From contig OZ024743.1 of NCBI GenBank assembly GCA_964016885.1, positions 319,610,001 through 319,674,000 on the forward strand: 64,000 nt of DNA, written 5' to 3'. Source of the stretch: Eledone cirrhosa (lineage: Eukaryota). The position numbers and the translations under genes were made by a program. Position 1 is the stretch's first letter; each line of letters begins with the position of its first letter. The notes beneath the pieces are model-generated. The model was given only the letters and a program-made list of their open reading frames with translations, was not told the origin of the DNA and made no database searches. Positions 242 to 63,505 of this stretch are shown here, in pieces.

Positions 242-351
242 TTTTCCCATAAAAGGTACCAGGTGGTGTTCACAGAGGGAGAACATTTCTATGTCTTTTA
301 CAATAACCATTTCATCATGATCCTCATCAAAAATGGCGTCGTTTAATATAT
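242..351 (-). CDS. GCH1: GTP cyclohydrolase I, coding exon 2 (110 nt); later exons lie outside the window
   Basis: Encodes (D)[36 protein letters not shown] with the zinc-binding CEHH motif. Acceptor TTTCTAG| ends at 352 and donor |GTAAGT starts at 241. Confidence 0.96.
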
Positions 352-13657: not shown

Positions 13658-13804
13658 TCCTGATGATTTCATATGAATGAAACAATTCTAGTCCTGTAGC
13701 AGTCATTTTTATATAAAATAAAAAATGTCTATACTCTACCATTGTATTAAATAACTTTTTAACTGTGATCACCTCCCCACTCAGACACAACTCAGGGATC
13801 TACA

Positions 13805-18353: not shown

Positions 18354-20635
18354 ACACAAGAATCAAAGCTATGTTAATATATTTAATTGCTGACAATTGT
18401 TTCTTCCAAGCCAGGATGGGAGTCTTCGGAGCATTATTAATAATGTTTGTACATATAATCAGCCTTCTATTCCGCTGAAGAATCATACAGATACATATTG
18501 TGGACAACAGTGTGGGATGGATGCGACATATATTATGTTATACTATAATTGTACAATAAGATTCAAAATTAAAATTAAAAGCTTTTGGCGGAGCACATGT
18601 GACAGATAATACAAGAGCGCCTAGTAAATAAATAAAATGAAAGAGACAGTACGTGCGTTAGTCATATATAAAGCAATTGAACAAGCAAAAGTATCAAGCA
18701 TATATGAATGATGGGTGTTGCATACAAAATACAAGCACTTAAAGCGGGTGTGTTATTATATTATGGTGGTTGCAATGCGGAGATATTCTCTGTGTAGATC
18801 AAATATGTGTGTGTGTAGAATAATAAAGTTCCAGGTTTCACATCCATTACATTTGTCACGTTATATGTGTATTGAGTGTCTGTTATAGTAATGGCTTGTA
18901 ATGTAAAGTAACTTAGTGTTATTTAGTCCGTATCGTATACTACATTTGTAGAGCTGGGAGAATTTACTACTGTTTAATACCCGAAAGTGGGAGCTAATGC
19001 GTAAGGGGAGGTAATGCGTAAGGGGAGGTAACTAGCTCATTATAATAATAATTAAACTCATTGTTCTAAGGGACTTTATATAGTGTTATAATTGAGGGCC
19101 TAATATAGAAACTATATATTTATATTTAATTTAATTTTAAACCCAGTCTACTCTCTCCTAATACATTAAGGTATCATTATAAAGTTGCCTATCAAGTATT
19201 ATAAAGTGCCATAATTGAATTTCCCATACAAAGTGTTATATATTTATATTAATTTAATCCTAGATACAGTCTACCCTCCCAAAATATATCAAAGGTTTTA
19301 CTAGATTGCTGTCTACCCGGTATATGGTAAGCTATGTAATACCGTATAGCTGTTTGCATGGTAAAGTAGATATATCTCTAGAGTAAATAAACATATCCTT
19401 TATATACAATGTTATTAATGTTAATCCATACATTTGATTATAGATGTATACATAATTCATTGTTCCATATTGCATTTAAGTTAGATAAATCCCTTATGTT
19501 ACTACATTAATCCTATATATATACAATGATATTAATTTTTACATTTAATTGAAAGTGTATATATAATTCATTGTTACGTTTAATATTTAAAGTTTATCCA
19601 AATTATATTTCCATCACTATATAATTATAAGTAATCTAAGTTTACTATATTAAGAGTATAGAGTTATAGGTCGGCTGAATTGTGTAGAGGAAAGAGTGAA
19701 TCAAAGAGTGTGGTGCAGTGGTGCAATGCAAGCCCTAAAGGTGAAGTGCTAATGGAGGTGCTGAGTTCAAAACTGACATTGCTATATACTAGGTTTAAAG
19801 CTTTGGAAAGAGTGTCGCAAGCGGTGCTGGCACTTCCGATTTTTTATTAAGGAAGTTAAAGTTCGAAAAGATTATAATATGGGTCTCTAGAAGACAGAGG
19901 TTACAAAATTTATTAGGTGGTTTATACGATGCTGCCCTACCTACTTCCCATTGAAGTGTATATGATCTATTCCTAGTTTTCAGATAGTGTATGTAGCTAG
20001 ATAGTGAAGTGGAGTTGGCTAGATTGTGCTTCCTGAAAGAGTTAAGGTGTGAGTTGTATCTCGTCTTGAAGCAGTTCGAAGTGGAGCCTATATAGGTTTT
20101 AGAAGAGTTGATAGTGTTGACCGTGCATGAGTAAATGATGTCCTTGATTAAGCAGTTGTTACTTAAAGGGCAGGTTCTATTTATTTTGAGTTATATCTTG
20201 TCAGTTATTATGCTGCGTAGAAGTCTGGTTGCTAGGTATTGCATTAGGGCTACGATGGTTGTCGGTCCCAATGTTATTGATTTCATTATTGTTACTACTA
20301 TTATTACTATTGCTATTAGGGTTAGTAGTTATTATGTTGTTTCGAAAGTTTCCCTCTTGTTGTCTTTTAATTTGATGGAGATAAGCATTAATTTTTATTT
20401 TATTACTACTAGCTATATGGTATGCTATGTTAGGTGTAGTAGATTAGGAGATTTTAATAGTGTTTTTATTTAAAAGCCTATGGTACTTGTGGCCCGACGG
20501 GAAGTTTCTTTCTAGGATTGAGAAGAAGGCCCTAGGTAAGTTGGTAGAGACGTTTAGATTGTAGTAATAAATTACCGACCTTACCTGTTTATAGTTGTAT
20601 ATAGTATAGTATATACATAACTATAAATAGTATCC

Positions 20636-20640: not shown

Positions 20641-20718
<78 letters not shown>

Positions 20719-21013
20719 TATGTATACGTACATACATATATGTATACAGACGCACAGTAGTATGTATATATATATACATACATGCACACATATATATATA
20801 TATGCACGTATGGATTCACCGAACATTTATTATAATTCTCGGTGTGTTTGTAAACAAACATCCCGAATTAAGCCGTACAGTGTCTAGCATCCATCGTTGC
20901 TCATTTGTTCAACACTAAGAGTGAGAAATGAAATTTCGTTTCATTTTTTCCGTTTATATATATATATATTATTCAAAATATTAATAAATGAAAAATATTC
21001 TCATAATCAAAAT

Positions 21014-25148: not shown

Positions 25149-25496
25149 CATATATATATATGTATATATATGTATATATATATGTATATATACATATATA
25201 TATATGTATATATATATGTATGTATATATGTATGTATATATATATGTATATATATATATTTTTTTACAGTCGATTCGTCAAATCGGACCGAGGAAACAAT
25301 GTTTCCATTGGTCTTTCCAATTGCTAATACTATCTATCGGTCGCAACTCCAGGTAGAAGGATCAACGTGAAATAAAGTGTCTTGCCCAAGGACATAACGC
25401 ATCGCCCGGTCCAGTTATCGAACTCACAACCTCACGATTGAGAGTTCAACTTTCTTACCACTCAGCCACGCGCCTTCACCAATATATATATATATG

Positions 25497-25565
<69 letters not shown>

Positions 25566-25777
25566 GTTAAAGTGTACATCTACATATGTATACGGAAGTA
25601 TTAGTATGCATATAAATACACACATGTATACATATGTACATGTACTGAGTTTTTCACTAGACACTTTACAGTGAGTGTCAGCTAGTCTGTATGTAACCAC
25701 ACAGACGGACCGGGTTTTAGAGTCATACGAGTTTTCAAGGAAACACATTTCCTCTATTCTCCAGAGAGCCAGACAGG

Positions 25778-25822
25778 AATATTGGACTAGTTTCGATGTT
25801 ATTACATCTCATCAGCAATATT
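25778..25822 (-). ncRNA. Type I hammerhead ribozyme (array copy 1)
   Basis: Minus strand reads AAUAUUG-CUGAUGA-GAUGU(AAUA)ACAUC-GAAA-CUAG-UC^CAAUAUU: 7-bp stem I, intact core, 5-bp stem II, palindromic ACUAGU stem III, GUC cleavage triplet. Confidence 0.92.
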
Positions 25823-26246
25823 TACCCATCTTCCGGCTTCTCTGGAGAATTGTAAAAGCACATATCGTTATATGCTTTTTCTATGAAAATTAGTAGTGGG
25901 TAGACTAATTTGCATAGAACGTGAGTCATTGTACGCACCGGTTCAGCGGAAACGATAAAAACAAATAACGAAACGAAATTAAATTTCGTTTCGCTTCTAA
26001 CTCACTTTTGTATGACTGACGCTTAAACAATTAAGTTAAAGTGTACATCTACATATGTATACGGAAGTATTAGTATGCATATAAATACACACATGTATAC
26101 ATATGTACATGTACTGAGTTTTTCATTAGACACTTTACAGTGAGTGTCAGCTAGTCTGTATGTAACCACACAGACGGACCGGGTTTTAGAGTCATACGAG
26201 TTTTCAAGGAAACACATTTCCTCCATTCTCCAGAGAGCCAGACAGG

Positions 26247-26291
26247 AATATTGGACTAGTTTCGATGTTATTACATCTCATCAGCAATATT
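26247..26291 (-). ncRNA. Type I hammerhead ribozyme (array copy 2)
   Basis: Identical to copy 1, offset by +469. Confidence 0.92.
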
Positions 26292-26715
26292 TACCCATCT
26301 TCCGGCTTCTCTGGAGAGTTGTAAAAGCACATATCGTTATATGCTTTTTCTATGAAAATTAGTAGTGGGTAGACTAATTTGCATAGAACGTGTGTCATTG
26401 TACGCACGGGTTCAGCGGAAACGATAAAAACAAATAACGAAACGAAATTAAATTTCGTTTCGCTTCTAACTCACTTTTGTATGACTGACGCTTAAACAAT
26501 TAAGTTAAAGTGTACATCTACATATGTATACGGAAGTATTAGTATGCATATAAATACACACATGTATACATATGTACATGTACTGAGTTTTTCACTAGCC
26601 ACTTTACAGTGAGTGTCAGCTAGTCTGTATGTAACCACACAGACGGACCGGGTTTTAGAGTCATACGAGTTTTCAAGGAAACACATTTCCTCTATTCTCC
26701 AGAGAGCCAGACAGG

Positions 26716-26760
26716 AATATTGGACTAGTTTCGATGTTATTACATCTCATCAGCAATATT
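26716..26760 (-). ncRNA. Type I hammerhead ribozyme (array copy 3)
   Basis: Identical to copy 1, offset by +938. Confidence 0.92.
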
Positions 26761-26959
26761 TACCCATCTTCCGGCTTCTCTGGAGAATTGTAAAAGCACA
26801 TATCGTTATATGCTTTTTCTATGAAAATTAGTAGTGGGTAGACTAATTTGCATAGAACGTGAGTCATTGTACGCACCGGTTCAGCGGAAACGATAAAAAC
26901 AAATAACGAAACGAAATTAAATTTCGTTTCGCTTCTAACTCACTTTTGTATGACTGACG

Positions 26960-27030
<71 letters not shown>

Positions 27031-27032
<2 letters not shown>

Positions 27033-30000
27033 CAAAGGAATTGTGGTAAGGAACCAAATGGACCATAACGCACCAGAGTACTCAATACTTAAGGTAGTAG
27101 AGTGTGAAATAGGAAAAAGTATGACCCCGACGGCAGAGCTCAAGCCGTTTCGACGGCTATTTCTGGACTAAATTAGAATTTTTAGCCTGGTGAATAAATA
27201 GCCGAAGTTTTCCAGGGGGTACTTCCTTATATGGGAAGATTTTAGTTGTCAAGAGGATTGGTTAAAATTTGTTGTAAACACAAATAAGTCTATCATGGCA
27301 TTTGATGGGAGGTAGGGTGGCTGAACTTGCCTGTAGAACAATAGGGGAGTGAGTGGAGCGGTCAAACTTTGAAAGTGATATGTATACATCAGATTCTAAG
27401 GCTAGTGTATGAAGTGGGGGAGGGAGGTTATAGAATAGGTAAATCGAAAGAGAATAGGAGACAATAAAAGATACTAGAAAGAAATAAAAAAAAATATATA
27501 AAGTTAGATAGTGAGAAATGAATAAAAAAAAATCACAATGCTATCTTACAATTACAGGTTAATAAGTTGAGAATAGAAAAAAACTTATAGAAATAAATAC
27601 GTCCAGGAAATTGACTCGGGTTAGGGACATTTGTAGGGTGATTTTAAATCCCCAGTCCCGGAAGAAGTTGATTAGTTGTTTACGGACCCGGTCTGTACTA
27701 CTGGGGTTGTACCCTTTGAGGGTGAGGAGCCCATCATCCCAGTACAATCCACCGCCGAATGCAGGAAACATTTCGGTGAGTTTAAATAGTAGGAATAATC
27801 CTATAAGATCTGTGACCTCGGCCGAATCCGTCGCGCCCATACTGACGTCGAAGGGGGAGTCGGGAGCTCTCTTTATCCACTTGGCGTTGTCGAAAAGTAG
27901 GACTGTCTTCCTGGCGTGGAAAATGATATTTCTTTCCTGGTCAGTGATGGGCGTGAGTGTTTCGGCAAAGTCCAGGGCGGCCGTAAGGAGCGGTGAGGTA
28001 ATAAATGCATAGCAACTCTCTATGTGAAACTGGGTGAATTTTGTGTCCCGTATGTCCTCCATATTCCTGAACCATGAGATTACTTCCTGGATGCTGACCC
28101 ATAAGCTAAGTCTCACGTTTTGCTTAACTTTTGGTATAATTCGGTCTAGGATCTTTTTACTGATTCTCCCTATGTCCGACTTCGTTGGGCTTATAAGCCT
28201 AATGGATGATTTGCGGTCGAAGTCGGATTTGTGGTCCTTCAGTGTGAAGTAGGGAGTCCGTGGGATTCGGCCGAGATCACAGATTTTATAGGATTATTCC
28301 TACTATTTAAACTCACCGAAATGTTTCCTGCATTCGGCAGTGGATTGTACCGGGATGATGGGCTCCTCACCCTCAAAGGGTACAATCCCAGTAGTACAGA
28401 CCGGGTCCGTAAACAACTAATCAACTTCTTCCGGGACTGGGGATTTAAAATCCCCCTACAAACGTTCCTAACCCGAGTCAATTTCTGGACGTTACCCATA
28501 ACCTCGAAAATGATCTGTAATACCCTTATAGGAAACCAAACGACAACCTGCACTACATCCACCGCCGCTCTAACCATCATAGAAACATCACCAATAACCT
28601 GGTTAAAAACATTTCCCTCCGCATATCTCGTTTGTCCGCCAATGAGCAGATATTCGACGAACACGCGTCTCATTACAACCAGGCCCTCAAGCGGAGTGGC
28701 TTCCGGGAGGAAATATCCTTTTATCCAGCTTCCCTTAGCGGAACCAGCAGGCGACACCGCCGCTCACGCAACGTAGCGTGGTTCAATCCTCCCCACAATG
28801 CCGAGGTGGCAACACCTATCGGGAAAATCTTCTTTACACTCCTCGAAAAACACTTCCCACTACAACACCGCTACCACAGTATAATCAACAAAAACACCAT
28901 CAAACTCTCCTACAACACCACACCTAACTTCGCACAAAACATCGTCTCCTCAAACAACAAAAAACTCAACCCCTATGGAAGAAATAACCTAGACATCAGT
29001 GGAGAGCCGACCAGGAGGTGTAACTGCCCTGATAGATCCACGTGCCCCTTCAACAACAAATGCCGAGAACGTAACGTGGTCTACCAGTGCAACGTGAGGA
29101 CGGACACCTCCAACAAAGCTTATATAGGATTAACCGCGTGTGACTTCAAAACTCGGCTCTACCAACACCGACACACTTTCCGAAACCCGGTTCAGTGACA
29201 TACCACTACACTTTCGGGCCACATCTGAGACCTCCAAGATAACAATATAACCTACAATCTCACTTGTAGCTTACTATCCAGAGCTAACTCTTACACGGGA
29301 GGACGCCGTCCATGTAACTTATGCTCGGAGGAAACATTACAAATGCTGTTTTCGAAGGACCAACTCCTAAACAAGAAAGATGAACTAGTAACCGCATGCA
29401 AACACAGATTGCGTAGGACTTACCTCGCCCTCAAAGCCTATAACGACCCGGGTGGGTAGACACATGGGCACACACACACACTTGCCGAATAAGTTAGGGG
29501 AAACCCCAGCTTACATAGGTAAATGTATCTCTTTTCTTTTCCTCTTTGTCTCCTTCTTCCCCCTGTCTCATCCTATTACTTCCTTCCACCCCCTATTTTC
29601 TTCCTCGTCTGCTTTCCCCTTTCGCCTACCCCGATGCAGCCCATCGGGCCTTGTAGCATCAGTTTCCCCACCCCTGTTATTTTAAGATAGAATTGGCCGA
29701 ATACGTTTTACTAACTACTTATAGCAGAAGTGTTAAAAACCCCTTTAAGTTTGTATCTGTTTTGTAATTTCTATAAGTTTTTTCTATTCTCAACTTATTA
29801 ACCTGTAATTGTAAGATAACATTGTGATTTCTTTATTCATTTCTCACTATCTAATTTTATATATATATTTTTTTGTTTCTAGTATCTTTTATTGTCTCCT
29901 ACTCTCTTTCGATTTACCTATTCTATAACCTCCCTCCCCCACTTCATACACTATCCTTAAAATCTGATGTATACATATCACTTTCAACGCTTGACCGCTC

Positions 30001-30226
30001 CACTCACTCCCCTATTGTTCTACAGGCAAGTTCAGCCATCCCCACCTTCCACCAAATGCCATGATAGACTTATTTGTGTTTACAACAAATTTTAACCAAT
30101 CCTCTTGACAACTACAATCTTCCCATATAAGTTCGGCTATTTATTCACCAGGCTAAAAATTCTAATTTAGTCCAGAAATAGCCGTTGAAACGGCTTGAGC
30201 TCTGCCGTCGGGGTCATACTTTTTCA
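27031..30226 (+). mobile_element. Penelope-like retroelement (RT plus GIY-YIG endonuclease) with an inverted 5' arm and inverted pLTR
   Basis: Plus arm (about 28258-29441) encodes GLYRDDGL, WFNPP and CNC..CPFNNKC..NVVY..YIGLT..FKTRLYQH, with frameshifts and stops. Minus arm (27600-28252) encodes TLKDHK..RLISPTKSDIGRISK..DVSMGATDSAEV. 27115-27595 is the reverse complement of about 29765-30226. Confidence 0.92.
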
Positions 30227-30600
30227 TATATATATATATATATATATATGACTATCTTTATTTATTCTTTATGTGAAATATTGATTGTTTTTTCCCATGT
30301 CTGGTATTTTGCCTGAGAAAATACCTCTATGTATATATAAATAATATGTACATAGATTTATTTTTTAATATCCAGTTGAGTCCTTTCACACGTGGTTAGA
30401 ATTACCAATAGGGTTCAATGACCTACGTGTATATTATTTTATGTTTTACGATGACCTCCCCTTCCCATTTGGGGACATTGTGAAATTTCTTTTTGAAGGA
30501 CTGCTGTACTTTCAAACTTAGCGGTCATTCTAGCACTGACGGGGACCATCGCTGAATATTAATATCAATGTAGTTTTTAAAAATTGATATTACTTGGGCA

Positions 30601-31229: not shown

Positions 31230-33199
31230 GGTAAGGGGTTGTAAGCTTGAACTGCTGGCGGCCATTCGACGTCTTTTCTGTCTTTAGGCGCCCTCATCCA
31301 CACCGATCACGTCCACACCCGCAACTGTATTGTATGCGACAATCACCGTAAATAATGCTTGAAGGGAATTTTTAAAACAAATTAGAAAAATATTTAACGT
31401 ATCGTTTCAAGAACACAGCCTCAGAATACCTTAAAACATACATATTTCAAAAAGAAAAAACTCTGTACAAGGAACGTTTTTAAATGAATGCTTGGAACAG
31501 CCTTTCAAAAAAAAAAGGTTATTTCGGAGGTATTTTTGATAAATATACACATATCTACACTCACACACTGTACTCAGGGAAGCGTGCATAGTTAAGACGC
31601 TGCACATATATACACAGATGAAAAAGAGAAAGATCTACACATAGCCATTCATACCCTCACACAGACATGTTCATACAAATACATCCATCCACCCAGACAT
31701 GTGTACACACGTGCGCATGCATATTTGCGTGGATACACATACATACATGTACCCGCGTATGTTCATACCGAGGGCACATACTTGATGAATACCCTCCCAT
31801 CCGTACACACACGCGCAGCTGTACACATGGTGCACATAGTATTACATGAGACAACGTTCTTGAGGCTTGGACCCAACCCGATCATGTGGCGGTATAAGCC
31901 CAAAAGTGCATGCACAATATGCATAAATGCTATAGCCGCATAGTATCCTTGCACTAATCACATATAACTTGGGTGGCACATATATATATAAAAAATTCCT
32001 GTATGTACATAAAATAATATAATATAAAATAATATAATATAAAATAAAATAAAATGCTGGAAAAAGGAATGTATACATGACAAGGATGCAGATGGGGTCC
32101 GGACATTATTGGGGTGTGCGTAAAGTTGCATAAAATACTTGAGGGCTGTGGTGCATATGGTTATATAATATACATGGGGACTGGGTAAGAGTCTGCACAT
32201 GATGCAGGTCTCATGGCTGGTGGACACATTGGGACCGTGCGTGCGTACACAAGCAAATTATATATATTGTGGATGTGTATAACATCCATTTCATAATAGT
32301 ATATATGAGATGTACATGTAGTGGATGTATACATGGAATAAATAGGGTATGTGTTTCATAACAGTACATATGAAATGTACGTGGAATGTATGCATGATTG
32401 GAATGTGCCAACGGCTTGTGTTGTAGGCGTGTATATATCAACGGCAGGCAAAGTTAAAATTAACTGCAACATTAACCTTAAAACCAGCAACAGGTCCGGT
32501 ATCTAAGCAGCAAATTAAACACCACGAATCTAAGATCGAAAATCAAACATTGGAAATTTAAAATTTGAAAATTTAAAACCACACATAGGGTTGTAGACTA
32601 ATTCAGACTTATATTGAGTCGGCGTCCGCAAATTGGTGTGGTGGTGCTATCCAAGGTACGCTACGAGGTAGGCATCGCTGGATCTGTCGTTGATATCAGC
32701 TTGTTCCGTCATGCATTCATAGGTATGCTGTGTTATATCGTGGTCCGTTGCATGCGCCCCACCTGGTATTGTGATGCCGGTAGTGCCTTAGGTAGACCCA
32801 TCCGGTATCACTAAAGCGGAGAGCATGCATTTACGTTGGTGTCTGCAGGCCATGATGATTTCAGATTTGAGGTTGACTGCGTCGCCCTTAAGTTTTACTA
32901 TCTCTAAAGCCTCGGACAAGCACAACTTGCACTTCCTCTCCCCGGCCGAGTACGCATTCGCACGCTGTACAATACTCCATCTGAGGTCAAACTCTATGCC
33001 ATTGTCTTTCAGTCCCCATACTAAGTCCGCCAGTCTGGTGGAGTGTCTCTTGTTCCTGTCCTTGAACGAGTACATCCTCGATTTAAAAGTCGTGGATGTA
33101 GCTCCGATGTATGTGTGCCTATCGTTGTGCGTGGTAACCACACATCTGTAGACAACGCCCTTAGTCAGGCACATTCCCTGCAGAGGGCACTCCTCTTCA

Positions 33200-33207
<8 letters not shown>
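31230..33207 (-). mobile_element. 5'-truncated Penelope-like element: GIY-YIG domain (32812-33200) and 3' region
   Basis: CPLQGMCLTKGVVYRCVV..TYIGATSTTFKSR..WSIV..CKLCLSEALEI..NLKSEIIMACRH. The 3' boundary is approximate. Confidence 0.8.
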
Positions 33208-39232: not shown

Positions 39233-39533
39233 CCAGTTATATCCTGGACACGCCAAAAGAAAAAAAACATATAAAACTGTTAAATAATCTTCCCATAAAC
39301 TTTATTTTTAATCAAATCCAGTCGAACTTCATTTTATACTTTATAGTACTCAAACTATTCCAGTCGACGTATGATGTTACCTGTAGGTCAGGCACAAGCA
39401 GGTTTAAATGTCCTACGGTTCCATGCATCCTATAAATTAATAAATATTGTTATTGCTTATAAAAAGGTGATAATTAGTTATTAGTTTATTAATGAACAAT
39501 TAATTAATTAACACACCTGTACTTGTCACTTAC

Positions 39534-39876
39534 CTTCAATATTTTCTTTGTAGCCCTTTGTGAAATACATAATAGCTTTGGCCGCTCTCTCTGGGGTCCG
39601 CAAGAGTCCCTGCCGGTGAGGATTTTCTCCCAGGTTACTCAAAATACCTTTATAATGAGTGGAAAGTGACTTGACGATATCTTCTTCACTTGTTTCATCG
39701 TAAGTAATACTTTCTGTCCGTTTATAACGGGTTGGTTGAAACGGTGTATTTACAGGACTGAAAACATCGTTGTCGCTGTGGGTGCTCGGATGGCGTACGA
39801 AAGCTAATTTCCGTAACTGATCTTCAAGTTCCACATTCGGATCTGTCCGATACACTAGTTCCCGATGATTCTCCAT
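39534..39876 (-). CDS. GCH1: GTP cyclohydrolase I, first coding exon (343 nt, ends in phase 1)
   Basis: Translation ends ...[40 protein letters not shown], the GTPCH-I N-terminal signature. Canonical donor G|GTAAGT follows (intron starts at 39533). The split codon G+AT gives Asp with exon 2. Confidence 0.95.
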
Positions 39877-44038: not shown

Positions 44039-44113
44039 TGATGGCTGCCCCCTCGTTATCGAGTATGGCCATTGCACGAGAAGAAAAAAAATAAAAATAA
44101 ATAAATAAAATAA

Positions 44114-44152
<39 letters not shown>

Positions 44153-44179
44153 AAAAAAAATAAATATATATATATATTC

Positions 44180-46111
44180 TTCAACCCACCGACTCCCACT
44201 CTTACCTCGACTTCACCTCTTCCCACCCCACCCACACTAAACACTCCATTCCCTACTCCCAACTTCTCAGGATCCGCCGCCTCTGTAGCCGAGATGCTGA
44301 CTTTGAGTCCCAGGCCCTTTCCCTAGTCAGCCATTTCATCCGCAGAGGTTACTCCCCCTCTCTCGTCCACACCGCTCTCACCCGCGCCCGTGTTGTCCCC
44401 CGCTCCACCACCCTCACCCCACACCACCGCACACCCACCCACCGTCTCCCCCTTCCCTATCACCTACCACCCCTCCACCTCCCACATCTTCCCAACCCCA
44501 CCACTCCCCTCCTTCAAACGCGCACGCAATCTCCGCACCCTCCTCGTCCACAGCTCCCTACCCCCCAACCCACGCTCTGTCCCCCCCCCCGGTTCCTTTC
44601 CCTGTTCTAGGCCCCGCTGCAACACCTGCCCCCACATCACCAACACCACCACCTTCCAGGGTCCCAACGGCCACTCTCTCTCTGTCCGGCACGCCTTCCG
44701 CTGCACCTCCTCCAACCTAGTCTACGGGACGTCGCCTGGCGGACCGATTCACTGAGCACCTCCGGGATATTCGTCTCGGGGGTAGTTCCCCCATCGCCCA
44801 CCACTTTGGTGGCCCTGGACATTCCGCACGCCATCTCACAGTCTGTGGCCTACTCCAGTGCCACGGAACACCCGCCAATCGCCTTAGAGTCGAACAATGA
44901 ACTATCTTCATCTTACAGACCCACACTCCCCCCCGGCCTGAACTCCCCATCCTTATTCCTTTAGCCTTCGACCCCCACCCTCGCCCCACACTTATCCCCC
45001 ACTAACACCACTAACACACCCCTCCTTTTCACCGGCCACCCCACAACTAACAATACTAACACCTCCACTCCACCCCTCATCTGACCACCCTTCCCCAACT
45101 AACATACTAACATCCCTCCCTTCTTCTCCTCCTCCCCCTCCTTATCACACGCACACACCCACCGGCACATATATACACGTGCTCACACTAAACACACACC
45201 CTATTACCACCACTAACCCTCACTCCCACACCTCTCACCCCCACACCTCTATCCCACCGCCCCGCAACTAACCTCACTAACACCCCCTAACCCCAAGCAC
45301 ACGAACACACGCACCCACTTACACAACCACCCCACACGCAACTAACATCACTAACACCCCCAACCCCACGCACACGTACCCACACACCCTCGTACACCAC
45401 CAACTCTACACACCCTACCACCACTAACCCCCACTCACACCTGCATTCAACCCCTCCCCACCTCCCGTATACTAACACCCACTAACACCCCTTCATCAAA
45501 CTACACACACACCAGTACACCACACTCCCTCCATAGAACTACACACACCCTTCTCTCCCCGCTCCACCCACACCCTCGCTCCACACTCACTCATCCCACT
45601 AACACCTCTACTAATACACACACACACACCCTCCTCACTCCAACTTTCACACCTACCCATCCTCGCCCCTTTACCATTCCACCAACTGCTGCTATGCCCT
45701 CTGACCACCTCCCAGCACAAACAGACACACAGCACTCCCACTGCTTGACCACTTCCTGTTGCGCGCGCACCCCACATCTCTCCTCTTCCGACCATCGCTT
45801 CATGGAATACTCGCACGCAGAAATTGACCACCACAGAATCCACTAAACACCATCCTCTTACGTAATCACCTATATAACTCACCCACACACACCCCAAAAA
45901 AATTTTTTTCTCAACACGCCACCTACACCCACAAGACGCTTAAACCCCACACACACGTGCTTTCCACCACATATTTACACCCTCAGCCTCCTGATTCCTC
46001 TCCCCCCCCCCCTCTATCCACACACGCACAGACACTCCGACCCCCCCCCCCCCCCTCCACACACACCTCTTCCTGAACATGCAACTCCGTTCTTCCCCCA
46101 ACCCTTACTTT

Positions 46112-46144
<33 letters not shown>

Positions 46145-46580
46145 GTACACCTACACACACACACCACCTTCAGCCCTCCCCGCTCGGACACCCGTCTCCC
46201 TCTCCCCACTCCAACCGCCACCACCCCTACACACCCCACACCCTTCCACCACCTGTTTTACCCCCCTTTTAATTTCAATTTATTTTGATCATGCTTTTAT
46301 ATTTAAATTTATTTCATTCCTTGTATTTTGATCATGCTTTATTTTTATTTTTATTTTTATTTATTATTTTTTTCATTCGCACCGTTTCCTTTCGCTATAT
46401 GTCTCTCCACCACTCCCCTACACACCCTTTGAACTCTGTTCCCACACACTTCTCACCTGAGGAAGGGCTTATGCCCGAAACGTCGTCCCCCACCAACACC
46501 CCACTCTCCAGAGCGTGAAATTAATAAACATTCGTTGTACTGCCTCTCTGTTTTGTTCCTGTTCAAATTTTTCCATTATA
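44180..46580 (+). mobile_element. 5'-truncated Penelope-like element (RT C-terminus, Cys-rich linker, GIY-YIG, C-rich 3' region)
   Basis: FLRIRRLCSRDADF..FIRRGY; SFKRARNLRTLLVHS; PCSRPRCNTCPHI..FRCTSSNLVY..RRLADRFTEHLRDI..PGLN. A terminal hammerhead and AATAAA follow. Confidence 0.88.
46452..46487 (+). ncRNA. Minimal Penelope-type hammerhead ribozyme
   Basis: CUGAGGA-A-GGGC(UUAU)GCCC-GAAA-CGUC, located in the 3' pLTR of the Penelope element at 44.2-46.6 kb. Stem I is very short. Confidence 0.7.
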
Positions 46581-46727: not shown

Positions 46728-47800
46728 CGATTTCATTTATTAGCCACAAGGGCCGACATGTAGGGGACAATACAAAGACAGGGACAGTGGGGGTTTACAA
46801 TAAGGTCGAGTAAAAGTGCACAATGGCAAGACTAATTTAGCAATGAAAATATAAAATATAAAATAAACTATGCAAAATATAACAAAATAAATTCCCCGAT
46901 AGGGGGTGGACGACCCTGGGGTGATTCGGGTACCCCACCAATCCTGAACCACCCTGCGCTTCTAGGGCACCCAGGAGAGCACCCCTCTCCTCAAGTTAGC
47001 TAGCCTATAGGCGCATGGTGAGAGTAGGCCCATTCACACGAGCCATTCTCGCCACATTCACCCACCTTTTAGCAAATGTACTGGGGGGCAGCACTTCTCT
47101 CTCCACCCTCACCCTCCTTTCCAGGTGAAACTTGAAGAAGTTGATGAGGGATTGGCCGAAGAGAAAAGTGTCTATCTTTAGTCCGTTCAACCTGGTCCAC
47201 CATATAATCTCTTTCGCAACTGTCACCAGACAGAGGAAAATGTCCTGCTCTTCCTGACCTAAGGAAGGTGGCGGCTCGATCTTCACTATGAACTCGGCCG
47301 ATAAAGGGATTCGTTCCACACGCGACAGTAGCTGTTCGACATAACTCCACAAGTCAGTAATGCACGGACATTGGACAAGTGCGTGCAGAACGGTTTCGTC
47401 GTTCTGTGCGCATCTTGGGCAGGTCCGTCTGACAGCACTTCCGTGCCTGTAGAGTTTATCCCGAACCGGCAGTGCCCCCCGGTAGCACTGACAAGCGAGG
47501 GATTTCTGGAAATTGTCCATCGTCCCCGGCTCAAAAGACCTCCGGTACAGACTGGTCAGTTCGACTTCGTCGAGGCCCAAAGCTTCTCCGAGTGCGTCAT
47601 CGCACTTGCCCACCACTAATCCTCTATAAAACTCGAGAGTGGAAGTTCCACTGATCGCATTGCCCGCTTGGTAGAGGGCAGTGAGTGCCTGGCAACATTC
47701 CAGGTGCCAGTCACCCAGTCTCGGTCTCTTCTTGACCCAGGACTGCAGCTCAGTCAAAGAAATGAGCTGCGGAAAGGCCCGTCTGATAAACGAACGACAA
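46728..47800 (-). mobile_element. 3' fragment of a Tx1-clade LINE
   Basis: ORF 47005-47841 is homologous to the C-terminus of the 58-63.5-kb element (CPRC..ETVLHALVQC). It ends GTGGCTAATAAATGAAATCG followed by (TTA)n. Confidence 0.9.
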
Positions 47801-47889
47801 CAACAATAATAATATACATATACATATATATATATACACACACACGCACATAAGCATATCTACATACACACACACACACACGATAGCAA

Positions 47890-49265
47890 CTAACAGTGCT
47901 GCGATCGAATGTGGCTTTTTAGCCCAGCCAATGATCTAAAATGTCTTGCACAGAGTCGGCAACCAAAACATTCACTGGGAATAGTCGGCTGTGGCTGGAG
48001 TTCGTGTACTTTTGCATGTCGCTTGAGCCCTCCTGCTGATTTACATTCTCTACCACATGTTTGGCAAGCATGATGAGTAGCATCTCCAACAGCAGCCTGG
48101 TAGTCAACCACTGGTCTTACTTTATGACTGCGAAGATAACTTTCGAGTCCAGCTTTGTTTAGGCAGAGTCTCGCACAGACGCTGCATGTCAGCACCATAG
48201 GAGGACCCTCGCCGTCTGGAAGTGCAACAGCAATGCCCTTCCTCACATCCGCTTTACCTTCTCGTGTGCGATTCCAGATGCCTCAAAGGCAACTTTTCCC
48301 TCATATACAGTCTTTCTCCATTTATTACGATCAGCAGCAATATTTTCCCATGTATCAGCAGAGATGTTAGCGTCTTTCAGAGAGGCTTTCAAGGAATCCT
48401 TATACCTCTTTTTTGGTTTATGTGGCGGTCGTTTTCCTTTAACCAACTCTCCATAAAAGAGTTGTTTTGGTATTCTAGAATCCTTCATCCTGGCAAGGTG
48501 ACCACTCCAACGGAGTCGTTGCTTAAGCACAAGAGCTTCTATACTGTCACACATAGAGCTGTCCAAAATCTCGACATCACTGATGTGGTCCCTCCAGTGA
48601 ACGCCATGGATCCGTCTGAGACACATCTGATGGAAACGCTCCAATTGCTTAAAGTGGTGTCGATGTGACCCAGGTCTCGCAGGCATAAAGAAGACAAGAG
48701 AGTACACATGCCCTGTACACCCTTACCTTTGTCCTCCTGCATATGTCTCTCCGACCCCAGAGTCGCCTTTCTAGCTTTCCGAAAGCATCACTTGCTTTCC
48801 TAATCCTAAGTGAGATTTCACTGTCAAGGTTGCCGTATCGATTGACAGTGCTTCCCAGGTAGACAAACTGATCAACCACTCCAAGTCGTTTGCCATACAC
48901 ATAGATGTTTGGTTCAGTGTACTGCTTACTAGGGGCAGGTTGGTACATGACGACGGTTTTCTTGAGACTGACAGTCAAACCCAGGGCAGTGCAAGCGTCA
49001 GAAAATGCATTCAAAATGTGCTGCATATCACTCTCTGTGTGCGCTACAAGATCGCAATCATCTGCATACAAAAGGTCTCTTATGATTGATGTAAACACTT
49101 TTGTCTTCGCAGCAAAGCGCCTGATGTTAAATATGCTGCCTGAGGTTCGATATCGGATGTAAACACCATGCTCGCAATTCCTGAATGCAATACAGAAAAC
49201 CATTGCAAAGTATATGGCAAACAGGGTCGGTGCTGGAATATCGCCCTGTTTCACTCCATTTTTTA
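47890..49265 (-). mobile_element. RTE (BovB-like) LINE 3' part: RT plus three C-terminal C2H2 zinc fingers
   Basis: NGVKQGDIPAPTLF, LLYADDCDL, FVYLGS, LRWSGHLARM..RIPKQLFYGEL, then CxxC..H motifs three times. Frameshifted. Confidence 0.92.
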
Positions 49266-49789
49266 CACATACATACATACATACATACATACATACATAC
49301 ATACATACATACATACATACAGACATACATACAGACATACATACAGACATACATACAGACAAGCATACACACATAGATGATGGCTGCCCCCTCGTTATCG
49401 AGTATGGCCATTGCACGATATAACATTATTAATAATTATCTGTTAATGCCATCGTGCAATGCCTGTGCGTGTAATATTTTTTAAAGTGAGGAAAGACTGT
49501 GCACTGAGCCAATCCCATACTCTGAGTGTCAGTAGCTATAACCCGAAAAGAAGAAAAGATCAAGATCATCGGTAACTACTAAGCCGCAGGTTTTATGTCG
49601 GAGTTATCCTAGTTTCCCGAGTTGCCTTCTAGATGAATGCTCTGACAAAGGCTAGGGGTCCTTCACTCCCAGTGGTTTAACCGCGCGATCGGGTATCCAA
49701 CCCGATTATTTCTATGTCCCCGCGCATATACATACACATGCATACATGTATATACATATATACATACATACATGCATCGTTTTATTCTC

Positions 49790-57913: not shown

Positions 57914-60900
57914 CAGACGTGTGTAACTTCGCGGAGAAGTTTCCGTTAATTTATGTAAGAAAAAAACGTGAGTTTTTAGTTAAATTTTATATCATTGTGT
58001 AACTTGACCCCCCGTCTGGACCCTCAGGTGGTGGGTCAACTGATTTTCGCCCCTACAGGGGCGGAATATCCATTTGAAAATTTTTTCTCCCTCGAATCTT
58101 GGAAAAAATATTGTAAAAGTTTGATTACGTTATGAACGCTGCGTCCAACGATAATGGTGATGGAGAGGCGGTAAGACTACAAAGCTCGCAGTCAACAACG
58201 TCTTCTTCACTAGATACTATAGAGATGGAAAGACGAAATGAAAATGTAAAAACGAATTCATATCCAAACAACACAAATGACACCAAACAGTTCAATGACA
58301 ACAAAAATAACAGCAACAGCAATAATGATGATAAAAGCAACAATGATAACAACAACAAAGAAAATAATAAAGACAACACCAATAACACCAGCATCAAGGA
58401 CAACAACAACACCAAGGAAAATACGAATAATATCAACATCGGTGACAACAAGAATAACAACAAGAATAACAACAATAATGACAACACCACCAACACGGAT
58501 TCCACAAAGAAACAAAAGACTCCTTTGCAGAGAAAGTTAAAAAAAAAAGGAACTGATATATCTCGACTTAACAAATGCTGAACAACTTTTAAAGGACGCT
58601 AGGAGATATGTCACTTTCGAAAAAAATGGTGCTTTCAGCATCAATTCTCCGGTAGAAATTCGCAAAGAAACTGCTCTCAAAACCATAGTTTTTAGGACAG
58701 TTTCCAATTCTACCCGAAAACCAGTCCAATTGTCACAGAAAGAAATTGATGAAGAAATTGATGAAGATAGAATACTGTCAGTAGGAAAGTCCCCCAGAGA
58801 TGTATTCAATGGGACTAGCATTGAAGTTCTGGTGCAAATGAGCCCAGAGCGAATAGCTATGATCCCACAACGTGTACTCCTGGACGGACTCACCTACATA
58901 AACTTTTCGGTTGAGGGTAGGCAGCCTTCATGTTAACATTGCTTTAGCAGGGGTCACCTGAGGGCTTCCTGTCCCAAATTAATGAATCAAAAAAAGGCTC
59001 TTCTGCCGACACCCATCAAAACAACACAACCACCAACACCACCACAACAACAACAACACCAACACACAAAAATAACCACAACAAACACAGTCCCACCCAA
59101 CCCCACTCAACCTAAAACCACTGCAAAATCACATACAGACACAACAGCTCCCCAAGACATACCCCTCCCCAATCACACAGACGATACAACAGATGAGGCT
59201 ATCTCGCCATCACCCAGTGAAGACGAGGGAGAACCCCATCGCTCGAAAAGAAAGAAAAGACATGACAAAAGCAAAAAACCAGCAAACACTACCACAAACA
59301 TACAACCACCAACACAAGCAACAAAAACATCACAAACAAAACCCCCACCCCCTGAAAACAAAATACCTACAACAAAACGAAAGCACACACAAGAACTACA
59401 GACAAAAACAAACAACACAAGAAAATTACACTTACACTTACATAAACACTGAAAACAAAACACCAATGGAGACCATCACGAACGACCCTTCGGTGAAAAC
59501 CGAAGGGAAAACTTTCGCCCACTCTATTAAAAATAGCAAAAAAATGAACCTAAATTTGATTAGGATCCTATACAAACTTATAGGTCCCTAAAAGAAACAT
59601 TTGAGAAGGATGTGGGCAATTCCTGCGTGAAACCACTCAACCGCGTCCTTCTCAAATGTCTCCCCACCCAGACACCCCCATCCCACCAGACCCCACCCCA
59701 CCAAACATCTCCGTCCCCACCCCGCCGGAAACCACCACCCATCCAGACAACCCCTCCAACACCCCCATGGAAATCGTGCGACCTGGTCCCCAGGAAACGA
59801 AGGGTGAGTGATCTCTTTTCCTCTTTTAACTTTTCAACATGGCCAATATAAGAGTTGGATGTGTGAACGTACGCGGCCTGGGGATGCCCTGGAAACAGGG
59901 CAAACTCTTAAACGACCTCAGGTCGCACAGTATGGATGTGGTAGCCATTTGCGAGTCCAGGATCCACAGCGAGCGACAGCTGGCCCCCATCTTCGATGAC
60001 TTTGAGATCTACGCATCTCTCTGTCAACCGGGGGGAGGGGGCGGAGTTGCCGTTTTGCTGCGGAAACACCTGGGCCTCGTAACACAGACGGTACATCTGG
60101 ACCCGGAAGGTCAACAGGTGGTCCTAGACGTTGACGGTAGTGAAGGTGGAGCCTTCAGGCTGGTGGCCGGATATGCCCCATCCGGGACACCGCGGCCAGA
60201 TTTCTTCAAACGTCTAGAGACTTTTCTGGGAACGTCCCGCTCCTTGCTTTTAGTGGGGGACTGGAATGGAATCCTAGATGCACGTTGGGACTATGTGGGA
60301 GCATGTCCCGATAAAGGGGGGTGTAACAGCCTCAAACAGTTAATCGACCGATTTGACCTGGCCGATAGATATCGACTAGATTTTCCGACTGCGCCACTGT
60401 GGACGTGGAGTAATCGTAGCGGAACATCTAGATCGTACCTAGATAGGGTTCTAGTTAGAAATAAGGATAGGTACATGTTAAGCTGTCCACAAATGTTCAT
60501 GGTTGCCTATTCAGATCACAAACTAGTGACCTGCATGGCCAACCTTGATAGAACCCATAGACAAGGACCCGGCTACTGGAAGCTGAACTTGTCGTTACCG
60601 AGAAGCAAAGCCTACAGTAGACGGATTAGCACTTTAGTTAAACAGCACTTGACAGGGGCCATTGTCAACAACAGATGGTGGTACTCTCTCAAGAGGGCAG
60701 TTAGATTAGACTCGATAGTTTTTAGTAAAGAATTAGCGTTAGATAGAAATAGAACCGAGAAGGAACTGGTAGATAAAGTAGAAGAGGCAATTAGAAGTGG
60801 CAACGTAGCCAGCGTGCTAGCAACGAGAACGGCCTTGGACCAGTTCTTCGACGCAAAGCACGAGGGCTGCGTTGTCAGAAGCAAAATACGTGCTCTGGGA

Positions 60901-63505
60901 AACGAGGGAGCCAAAGCTGTTAGCTGGGCCCGAGTGACGGAGGCAAAAAGTGGCAACAAGTCCACGATTCGGTCTTTGAAGGACCAAAACGGACGCGTGA
61001 TACGTGAGCCAAAGCAGATGTGTGCGGCTTTTCAGCGGCACTTTGCTCAGCTGTTCGGGGGGGGGGGGAGTCTATGGATTTCGGTCCATACCTCGACGGC
61101 CTACCGCGACTCTCGGACAGCGAGGCAAAGTTCTGCGAAAAGCCGATTTCAGCCACTGAGATAGAGGACGCGCTGAGCCAATGCGGCAAACGCAAATCTC
61201 CAGGTCTCGACGGTCTACCCTACGAATTTTACGTAGCAATGCCGGACTTATTCTCCGGTCTCCTGGAAGCGGTCTACTGCAACTGGCAACAGAACGGGAG
61301 AATTCCCAGTTCTGTAACCGGGGGCGTGGTCACACTAATCAGGAAGGACGAGAATAAGGTGGATGACATAGGCAACTTCCGGCCCATAACTCTGCTAAAC
61401 ACAGAGTTACAGATTTTGGCCAAGGTGTTGGCAAAGAGGCTGGCGGTTGTCGTCGAGAACCTGGTGAGAGAACGCAGACATGCGCAATCCCGACCAGGTC
61501 CATACACGACAACCTCCACCTCATGCGATACATCCTAGAGAGGGTAGGGTGTAAACCCGGCTTCGGTGGGGCCCTAATCAACTTGGATCAGTCTAAGGCT
61601 TTCGATAGGGTTGACCATCGTTACCTGGATGCAGTGCTCGAGGCGGCAGGCTTCGAACCCGTGTTCAGGGGCTGGATTGCTGCAATGCACAACAGCAACA
61701 TCTGCTCAAGGGTCAAGGTGAACGGCTACCTCTCGGAGCCGTTCCATATTACGCGATCCATTCGACAGGGATGCCCTCCCTCCTCCCTTCTGTACGTACT
61801 GACTTTCGAGCCACTACTGCGGAAGTTGGAGCTATTGCAGGGCATCTCTCTGGAACCGGGACTGCGGAAAGCGGCGTCGGCCTACGCCGGCGACGTGACA
61901 GTAATGGTGTCGAGCGCCTCGCAAATCGAGGAAGTCGCCACCTTACTGAAGGAATACGAAAGTTTCACAGGAGCGAAGCTGAACCGGGACAAGTCCATCG
62001 GTTTGCAACTCGGATCGTGGAGAGGCAAACCGATGCCTTCCGATGGCGTCGTCGGACGCTGGACGGAAGGACCGGTAAAGCTGCTCGGGGTCTAGTTTGG
62101 TCCGGACCTCCAGGTGGTGAAGAACTGGAACGAAGTGACGGCCAAGGTGTTTGCACTCACCCAGAAGTGGACTGAGTGCAAACTATCCTTGAAAGGTCGA
62201 GCGGAGGTGGCGAACACTTTTATAGCGTCCGCCATCTACTACCGCTTGATCGTCGTGCCTTGTCCAGCCAAAACGCTCGCCAAAATGGAGCGCGCGCTCT
62301 TCCGATTCCTTTGGAAGAGGCGGGCTCCTTTGGTGAGAAGATCCATCTGCTGCCAACACCCTTCTATCGGAGGACTGGGGATGCCGTGGTTGACGATGTG
62401 CAAACACGCGCTCAGGCTGCGGCATCTCTACGTATTCCTCACCTGAAAACCGGTGTGGGCCCCGTTCGTGAGGGGAGCCTTCCCACGACTCGTCTCGCTG
62501 ACCGAGCTGCAGTCCTGGGTCAAGCAAAGACCGAGGGAAATGGGCGACTGGCACATCGAATGTGCTCAGGCGCTCACAGCCCTCTGGTAGGCGGACCCGG
62601 CGATCAGTGGAGACTCCACTTCGTCATTCTAGAGAGGGTTGATCCGCAGCAAGTGCGACGACGCGCTCGGTGAAACTCTAGGCGTAGATGAAGATGAAAT
62701 GGCCAGTCTGTTCGGTAGGACCTTCCGCCCGGGACCGATGGACTACTTCCAAAAGTCCCTGGCCTGGCAGTGCTACTGAGGAGCTCTACCAGTTCGAGAC
62801 AAGCTCTACAGACATGGGCGCCCGGGCAGGGACCCTGCAAAAAAGATCTGTCCGAGGTGCGTGCGAGACGAAGAAACCGTCGCGCACGCATTCATACAGT
62901 GCCCGGGCATCACTGACCTGTGGGGCTATGTAGAACGACTATTGTCGCGGATGGGACCAATCTGGTTGACCACCGAGTCCATTGTCATGATCAAACCGCC
63001 ACCCTCCTTCAAAAACGAAGGAGAGGCGGTTTTCCTTTGTGTGATAGCTATGGCGAAAGAGGTTGTATGGTGGACAAGGTTGAAAGGGCTGAGGCCAGAC
63101 ACCTTTCTCTCCGATCAACAACTGATTCTTTTTTTCAAATACCACTTTGGAAGAAGAATCAGGATGGAGAGAGAGGTGCTGTACCCCAGCAAGTTTTATG
63201 AAAGGTGGGTGAAAGTGGCGAGAATGGCCCGAGTGAATGGGCCTTCTCTCTATATCAGCATGTAGGTTGAGGAAAAGGAGGAGGAGAGGAAAGGAGTACA
63301 AACTCTTCGTACTCCTGGAGATGAGGGTTGCACATTTTTTCGGGGGTATGTGTGACCCATATAAACTGTCTCCCCCTATTGGGGAAAATCGACTAACTTT
63401 TTAAATTGCATTTGTGATAACATTTTACACGTTTTTTATTGTATCTAAACTTCCCCCTTTGTATTTGTCCCCTTCTTTTGTGCCCCTGTGGCTAATAAAG
63501 AAACA
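57914..63505 (+). mobile_element. Near full-length Tx1/L1-clade LINE (ORF1 with zinc knuckle; ORF2 APE-RT-ZnF), inactivated by frameshifts and stops
   Basis: ORF1 (about 58132-59450) has an Asn-rich N-terminus and C*xCxxxGHxxxxC. ORF2 from 59839 has NVRGL, VGDWN, SYLDR, YSDH, GYWKLN, KSPGLDGLP, FRPITLLN, LDQSKAFDRV, IRQGCP, AYAGD. It ends AATAAAGAAAC and is flanked by (TATC)n on both sides. Confidence 0.93.

Follow-up and report, generated by a model that had tools for sequence, protein, structure and literature searches.

A three-unit hammerhead cassette in the first coding intron of GCH1 is very probably one insertion of a dispersed retrozyme family that uses Penelope-like machinery

A cassette of three tandem units, each containing a hammerhead motif, is found inside the GCH1 gene in a window of 64,000 nucleotides (the whole stretch of DNA analysed here). 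The locus raises the question of what kind of element this is, which machinery has copied it, and whether the transcription of the host gene has any part in its propagation. On the evidence presented below, the cassette is very probably one insertion of a young, dispersed, non-coding and non-autonomous non-LTR retrozyme family, called RZ1 here, which is copied in trans by the RT/GIY-YIG protein of a Penelope-like element (PLE).

The tandem arrangement was recovered by TRF (period 469, 3.0 copies, 98% matches), which also delimited the (TA)n tracts on either side. A canonical type I hammerhead, with the minus-strand core CUGAUGA-GAUGUAAUAACAUC-GAAA-CUAG-UC, was present in all three units. Two PF01227 pieces of GCH1 run on from each other (profile 3-43 and 48-83, Pfam) and enclose a 39-kb first coding intron, in which the cassette lies in sense orientation, 12.6 kb past the donor (Table 1). 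The original prediction was right about the near-identical units, their intact hammerheads, the sense orientation in GCH1 and the coordinates of the cleavage sites and monomers. The size of 469 nt which it gave for every unit holds for units 1 and 2; unit 3 has only 465 nt, since it stops at a fixed end of the family. The cassette is a young copy, 99% identical to the family consensus. Compared with shuffled sequences the predicted monomer is far more stable, above all on the hammerhead strand, where it folds at -164.1 kcal/mol (z -12.2); the opposite strand gives -143.5 (z -9.3). Two details of the secondary structure had to be modified: the stem I pairing GCCGGA/UCUGGC is one of two near-equal registers (-38.0 vs -38.5), and comparison with the sister family RZ2 (see below) favours a 4-bp stem II with a conserved UAAUAA loop and a stem I of 6 bp with a UAA bulge. 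The search with hammerhead models that had been suggested as a check gave three Rfam matches to HH9 (RF02275) at 32.4 bits (E 2.1e-5), all below the gathering score of 52, while the mir-family matches in the window are AT-repeat noise far under their gathering scores. HH9 resembles RZ1 in its type I topology, its long stem I and its intronic position. It comprises single conserved amniote motifs and not mobile tandem repeats.

Table 1. Coordinates of the cassette, the neighbouring PLE and the host gene exons in the window.
Feature	Position	Strand	Remarks
RZ1 insertion, single arm, three tandem units	25560-26963	-	5'-truncated at TA microhomology; 3' end is the fixed end A
Unit 1	26494-26962	-	469 nt, GC 36%; longest ATG ORF of the array 67 aa; from alignment
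Unit 2	26025-26493	-	469 nt; five private changes; two private haplotypes unique in the genome
Unit 3	25560-26024	-	465 nt; stops at end A
Hammerhead 1 with extended stem I	26694-26788	-	Core 26723-26753; predicted cleavage after 26723
Hammerhead 2	26225-26319	-	Core 26254-26284; predicted cleavage after 26254
Hammerhead 3	25756-25850	-	Core 25785-25815; predicted cleavage after 25785
Predicted monomer 1	26254-26722	-	From core coordinates
Predicted monomer 2	25785-26253	-	Fold z -12.2
Tail between the fixed ends	26424-26497	-	74 nt; end A 26498, end B 26424; conserved 13-bp hairpin at 26437-26463
Tail repeats	25955-26028; 26893-26963 (minus first bases)	-	
(TA)n target, 3' side	25482-25560	.	
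(TA)n target, 5' side	26962-27031	.	Also used by the tailed end of the neighbouring Hydra-type PLE
Older, separate Hydra-type PLE insertion, two inverted arms	27032-30230	.	Minus arm ~27032-28263, plus arm ~28264-30230
GCH1 first coding exon	39534-39876	-	Pfam PF01227; GT at 39533
GCH1 second coding exon	242-351	-	Pfam PF01227; AG at 353-352

When the genome was searched with one unit, another of the checks suggested before, a dispersed family emerged: at least 335 matches, mostly 97-99% identical, were obtained from the 40 of 920 candidate places that were scored. The 36-nt hammerhead core has 1,425 exact and 3,205 relaxed matches in the genome, with none in the reversed controls. The exact junction of one fixed end (end B, defined below) with TA occurs 2,276 times, and by this end-junction count the RZ1 insertions number more than 2,000. 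At least three subfamilies could be distinguished, at about 99%, 95% and 86-90% identity, and the core was intact in 287 of the 313 units sampled. The unit is non-coding, with no ATG ORF above 67 aa, and an LTR layout was absent from the RZ1 loci mapped. Mapping was carried out on 40 loci sampled by similarity and on 43 sampled by position along contig C1 (a segmental duplicate being discarded); it also took in an array exceeding 60 units and a further 37 loci chosen by end motif.

The anatomy of these insertions carries the main argument about the machinery. In all subfamilies the 3' stops fall at two places, end A at unit positions 465-469 and end B at positions 69-70 of the following unit, which are 70-74 nt apart. 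The 5' ends are scattered; 15 of 138 5' breakpoints lie at unit position 1, an excess largely due to a filter that drops pieces shorter than 35 nt. The insertions sit in (TA)n, and most of them consist of two head-to-head arms, while some, including the window copy (end A), are single-armed. The position sample (n=43) contained 25 A+B insertions, none with A+A or B+B, 11 single-armed and 7 unscorable ones, and the similarity sample (n=40) contained 26 A+B, 1 B+B, 12 single-armed and 1 unscorable. A+B was thus found in 51 of the 52 two-armed insertions in which both ends could be scored (p 2e-14 under free choice). Among the 37 loci picked by end B, an inverted end A was present in 24, an inverted end B in none and neither in 13. 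The sole B+B insertion (L008) is flanked by sequences that repeat one another in inverted orientation, which suggests that it was rearranged later or misassembled.

An inverted 5'-truncated arm, a tail on one end and a microsatellite target together make up the insertion signature of PLEs, and RZ1 displays all of them; the use of Penelope machinery, which had been put forward for the cassette, is thereby backed. PLEs are described as having partial tandem copies, a truncated copy in inverted orientation and a tail at one of the ends (PMC8557442). In an anole PLE two internal RT start sites flank the tail, and the target is cut and extended on both of its strands, as described in PMC11167929. 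The Hydra-type PLEs of the same genome share this layout, their tails measuring 80 and ~66 nt, and the tails of the PLE families in this genome measure ~60-110 nt when read by eye.

Scanning the flanks at low stringency brought to light RZ2, a colinear sister family of about 430 nt, which is ~65-75% alike to RZ1 in the matched parts and has 9,489 exact hammerhead cores in the genome. It possesses the same two ends at homologous places, a tail of ~60 nt, a GUA triplet and a U-U at the base of stem II. One RZ2 copy is located in the window at 20713-20957, as a short two-armed A+B insertion without a hammerhead, and further loci are L101:3470-4914 and L198-L228. Spacings of 2.2 kb and 3.4 kb between RZ2 copies were considered as a sign of an autonomous element and rejected, since they stem from a segmental duplication of local extent and from an ordinary tandem array.

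At the RNA level, the young and old subfamilies differ at 3 of 127 sites in the tail and core and at 39 of 342 sites elsewhere (p 0.0016); the tail and the hammerhead core are selectively conserved. In an alignment of 27 units with 111 pairs, 98.9% of the cells are paired and both sides have changed in 4 pairs, the controls ignoring relatedness. Among the changes shared by at least two rows, G-U occurs in 15 pairs and A-C in 2; this excess of G-U over A-C points to the hammerhead strand, with the caveat that the structure itself was derived on it. From RZ1 to RZ2, stem II changes from GAUG/CAUC to UAGC/GCUU with the UAAUAA loop kept, the stem I pairs covary and the stem III CUAG is unchanged. 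Of the 245 core sequences collected from RZ1 and RZ2 together, 244 have GUC, GUU or GUA as their cleavage triplet. A helix III of one pair with a palindromic tetraloop defines the axolotl Amex1 type, which needs to be a dimer to cleave well, while most invertebrate retrozymes are reported to cleave efficiently as monomers (PMC7229834). The weak palindromic stem III of RZ1 matches the former type, in line with the dimer dependence proposed earlier.

The arms of the insertions also contain information about the template. A cleavage site is crossed by 61 of 70 arms, two or more sites by 27, and a single one of the 138 5' breakpoints falls close to such a site. Since the arms cross the cleavage sites and the breakpoints avoid them, the template was a circle or an uncut multimer and not a cut linear monomer. 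The diagnostic-site haplotypes of the two arms were identical in 21 of 36 young insertions, compared with 135 of 1,332 cross pairs, and both arms of an insertion come from one haplotype. The insertion-unique alleles of 53 two-armed insertions were distributed as follows: 6 were fixed in all units of both arms, 1 was in register, 5 were out of register, 13 were confined to one arm and 146 to a single segment. This mixed pattern leans towards a repeatedly copied monomer. The private changes of RZ1 are strand-symmetric and CpG-rich and therefore arose after insertion. A test for an ADAR footprint gave A>G 9 vs T>C 3 at array-fixed sites and 17 vs 23 among private changes; the numbers are small and G-U tolerance explains them equally well. 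With modest confidence we regard a circle as the probable template; an uncut tandem transcript is possible, and we are inclined to doubt it.

The most serious rival explanation keeps the PLE helper and the element as above and takes the uncut tandem transcript for the template, so that the hammerhead would serve another step, such as transcript release or turnover, and circles would be a side product or absent. Uncut RNA was the template of the anole PLE in vitro (PMC11167929), the weak stem III predicts slow cleavage, and both arms have an allele (at L034) and a pair of alleles (at L127) in common in register, all of which agree with this explanation. However, the core is more constrained than the remaining unit, and the six alleles fixed across units and both arms, against a single one in register, argue for a monomer. 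With 146 single-segment alleles the source arrays should moreover be heterogeneous, and copying them as multimers should yield many in-register pairs. We consider this explanation a possible one, on the unlikely side.

Under the preferred reading, in which PLE machinery copies a circle, the following mechanism is proposed. Tandem arrays would be transcribed by read-through or from an internal promoter. Neighbouring hammerheads could pair via the palindromic ACUAGU and cleave, and the resulting 469-nt monomers would be closed by a host ligase; a lone circle with a 1-bp stem III would be expected to resist re-cleavage, by analogy with the hammerheads described in PMC7229834. It counts against the scheme that 8 of 9 predicted Xenopus retrozyme dimers failed to cleave in vitro (10.64898/2026.07.22.740005). 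A PLE protein would bind near the conserved tail hairpin, nick both (TA)n strands and prime cDNA at the two fixed sites, with one site on each strand. Of this step, the insertions themselves display the fixed ends, the target and the A+B pairing, and the enzymology is modelled on that in PMC11167929. Both cDNAs would then extend past the cleavage sites over one or several units, end at scattered positions and be joined head to head, with some insertions keeping one arm, as observed in the window copy, and some arrays expanding afterwards by the local duplication described below. In this scheme the GCH1 intron would be a mere landing site.

We put forward, tentatively and as somewhat less than an even chance, that RZ1 and RZ2 record the rolling-circle retrotransposition of a circular RNA, which has been an independent RNA replicon long enough to lose its sequence ties to an autonomous pLTR. 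If this is true, one 469-nt circle would be taken up by a dimeric Penelope-type enzyme, which would prime at two fixed sites on both strands of a TA target and copy its way round the circle; the dimer-only hammerhead would keep the circles intact, and the element would be recognised by structure alone. The replicon would then comprise two families ~65-75% alike, with more than 12,000 hammerheads.

It is improbable that GCH1 transcription feeds RZ1, or that the host co-opted the cassette to cut GCH1 pre-mRNA. The sense position within the intron and the three intact cores speak for such a role, and the release of monomers from GCH1 pre-mRNA, or its cleavage, is possible as predicted from the sequence. 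On the other hand, the copy is young, and the private haplotypes of both predicted monomers each occur once in the genome; therefore no daughters of the GCH1 locus are seen since these changes arose, while daughters predating those mutations would escape this comparison. The family has more than 2,000 insertions, of which this locus is one, and intronic copies are therefore to be expected; about 43% of the Xenopus retrozymes are intronic (10.64898/2026.07.22.740005). The original proposal of a retrozyme fed by a host gene was thus not borne out. The position of RZ1 inside GCH1 looks incidental, and the GCH1 link adds little to the significance of the family.

Less probable still is that RZ1 is satellite DNA which was dispersed through duplication at the DNA level or through extrachromosomal circles and in which the hammerhead is a passenger. 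The array of more than 60 units with higher-order blocks would fit, but two fixed 3' ends, scattered 5' ends, a strict A+B inversion, TA targets and a strand-specific G-U tolerance are unexpected from DNA duplication. The long RZ1 arrays hold duplicated blocks, and some arrays grow later by local duplication. Because of these blocks, the length of an array is no proof of rolling-circle copying, and long arrays were rejected as such proof. DNA-level duplication accounts for secondary array growth only, and as the way in which RZ1 spread it is largely refuted by the counts of insertion ends. The array of more than 60 units (G000:C1:95620900-95649700+; L113, L114, L135) appears as a retrozyme turning into a satellite.

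The search for a parent or helper element started from the PLE next to the cassette. One arm of this Hydra-type insertion carries a ~80-nt tail, and its architecture is that of RZ1, while its sequence has no similarity to the unit. Its family has intact 784-aa ORFs with Hydra-type motifs, TA targets, a tandem period of about 3,540 and an 80-nt tail. The assignment to the Hydra type is by motif: RWR, DKT, CNCPDRSIC, CNLC and CKH were read in the 784-aa ORF and compared with PMC8557442; the marks of the Hydra clade given there are a C-terminal EN, an RWK-like motif, DKT, a CxCX5C linker, CxxC and CxH around E/N and a (TA)n target. Searches of Pfam and PDB gave no match for the Hydra-type ORF. 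The family (window 27032-30230; L115-L120) is very abundant and young, with 30,486 first-look candidates, and it is without a canonical hammerhead, though the Hydra clade is described as always carrying one: the canonical core had no match in its tandem copies. Another Hydra-type family of the genome does carry a hammerhead and has a tail of about 66 nt. The neighbour was rejected as the parent of RZ1, since it lacks the hammerhead and 267 of 300 and 24 of 100 shuffles scored as high as its local similarity to the unit. Short ends of this family are also frequent at TA arrays with no retrozyme nearby, so its adjacency to RZ1 reflects a shared target.

The 11 PLE end families collected from ~0.9 Mb of DNA gave no convincing local match to the unit outside the hammerhead core; the best matches were reached by 2-3 of 200 shuffles and lie in AT-rich low-complexity stretches. 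Read by eye, the RZ1 tail is without the ACTC...GAGTRC motif of several PLE tails. All 37 further tail sites without an exact core proved to be retrozyme copies, none running into an ORF, and an ORF scan of 34 position-sampled stretches found no long ORF continuing from a unit. RZ1 is not an autonomous Penelope-like element, as no RT plus GIY-YIG ORF was found in the unit or continuing from it. Two RZ1 loci (L002, L035) adjoin the 3' UTRs of two different Hydra-type copies. These junctions were considered as template-switch chimeras, but they involve different families and one is frameshifted, so they were not counted as evidence. A locally triplicated pLTR of an autonomous Penelope element, named in the original prediction as the finding that would overturn it, is the least probable explanation of all: the PLE-type tail and inversions and the PLE 70 nt away would suit it, and a rare parent is possible, but the neighbouring family shares neither core nor sequence with the unit, the core-less tail sites and the ORF scan led to no coding element, and the two 3' UTR junctions involve different Hydra-type copies.

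Our best guess for the donor of the machinery is a Hydra-type PLE, which is a candidate only, because TA-associated PLEs of other types exist in this genome. An intact 780-aa PLE ORF of another type (GLKF motif, C-terminal endonuclease) adjoins a retrozyme insertion at L173:752-3091. The flanks of many loci contain PLE-type families with minimal hammerheads, at least eight in number, which are TA-targeted and have tails of ~60-110 nt; copies are present in the window at 13660+, 14190-, 14532+ and 15619-, and several of the tails start with the ACTC...GAGTRC stem motif. The GCH1 intron also harbours diverged Hydra-type GIY-YIG fragments (window 32788-33200 and 19795-20600, both minus strand). 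Elsewhere in the window a lone hammerhead-like core (CUGAGGA...GAAAC GUC) was noticed at 46457 (+), downstream of a degraded PLE-like region at ~44100-44800, and fragments of non-LTR retrotransposons with APE endonuclease and RT motifs were recognised in the ORF list at 59830-63265 (+) and 47005-49400 (-).

Compared with known systems, we are confident that RZ1, with its sister family RZ2, belongs to the known non-LTR retrozymes, for which the idea of PLE mobilisation also exists already. The metazoan non-LTR retrozymes (Cervera and de la Pena 2020, PMC7229834; Li, Clavereau, Pollet 2026, 10.64898/2026.07.22.740005) are, like RZ1, tandem non-coding low-GC units with one canonical type I hammerhead each, present in thousands of copies from dimers to long multimers, with PLEs in the same genome. 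The GC content of RZ1 (36%) lies below the 45-50% used as a limit for retrozymes. The statement that the unit is longer than typical is valid against the 170-400 nt of PMC7229834, but not against the 51-972 bp of 10.64898/2026.07.22.740005. The fixed double ends, the tail and the head-to-head arms of RZ1 are features without mention in the accessible portions of these two papers. Of 57 Xenopus retrozyme families, 24 matched annotated elements, nearly all of them PLEs (10.64898/2026.07.22.740005), whereas no parent pLTR of RZ1 was found among the 11 PLE end families and the 37 further tail sites. For the giant squid, the available portions of PMC6962438 contain a count of 235 hammerhead-1 loci and no retrozyme analysis. 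In the literature covered (subscription papers, Repbase and Dfam being outside its scope), no cephalopod retrozyme and no combination of tail and inversion in retrozymes is described.

In its hammerhead, RZ1 agrees with the axolotl HHR_Amex1 and newt satellite-2 type (PMC7229834) in the 1-bp helix III, the palindromic tetraloop (CUAG in RZ1) and the canonical size of loops 1 and 2, and differs from it in its occurrence in an apparent invertebrate. RZ2 resembles Amex2 by the U-U added at the base of stem II. The PLEs of the Poseidon PAc (PMC11167929) and Hydra clade (PMC8557442) types share with RZ1 the partial tandems, the inverted 5'-truncated arm, the one-end tail, the two RT start sites and the AT-rich or (TA)n targets. 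In contrast to them, RZ1 has no ORF, its tail is 70-74 nt and not 30-40 nt long, and its hammerhead is canonical and not minimal.

The mobility mechanism of animal retrozymes is described as remaining to be worked out (10.64898/2026.07.22.740005), and the published support for a PLE helper consists of co-occurrence and pLTR similarity. To these RZ1 adds a structural footprint, namely the fixed double ends, the tail and the near-obligate pairing of a tailed with a tail-less inverted arm; the strict A+B rule also constrains the models of Penelope integration. RZ1 further supplies exact RT start positions and a conserved hairpin as a candidate binding site, and young Hydra-type ORFs reside intact in the same genome, so that both the helper and the choice between circle and multimer can be tested directly in vitro. 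The genomic evidence that RZ1 provides for the mobilisation of a retrozyme by a PLE is unusually direct.
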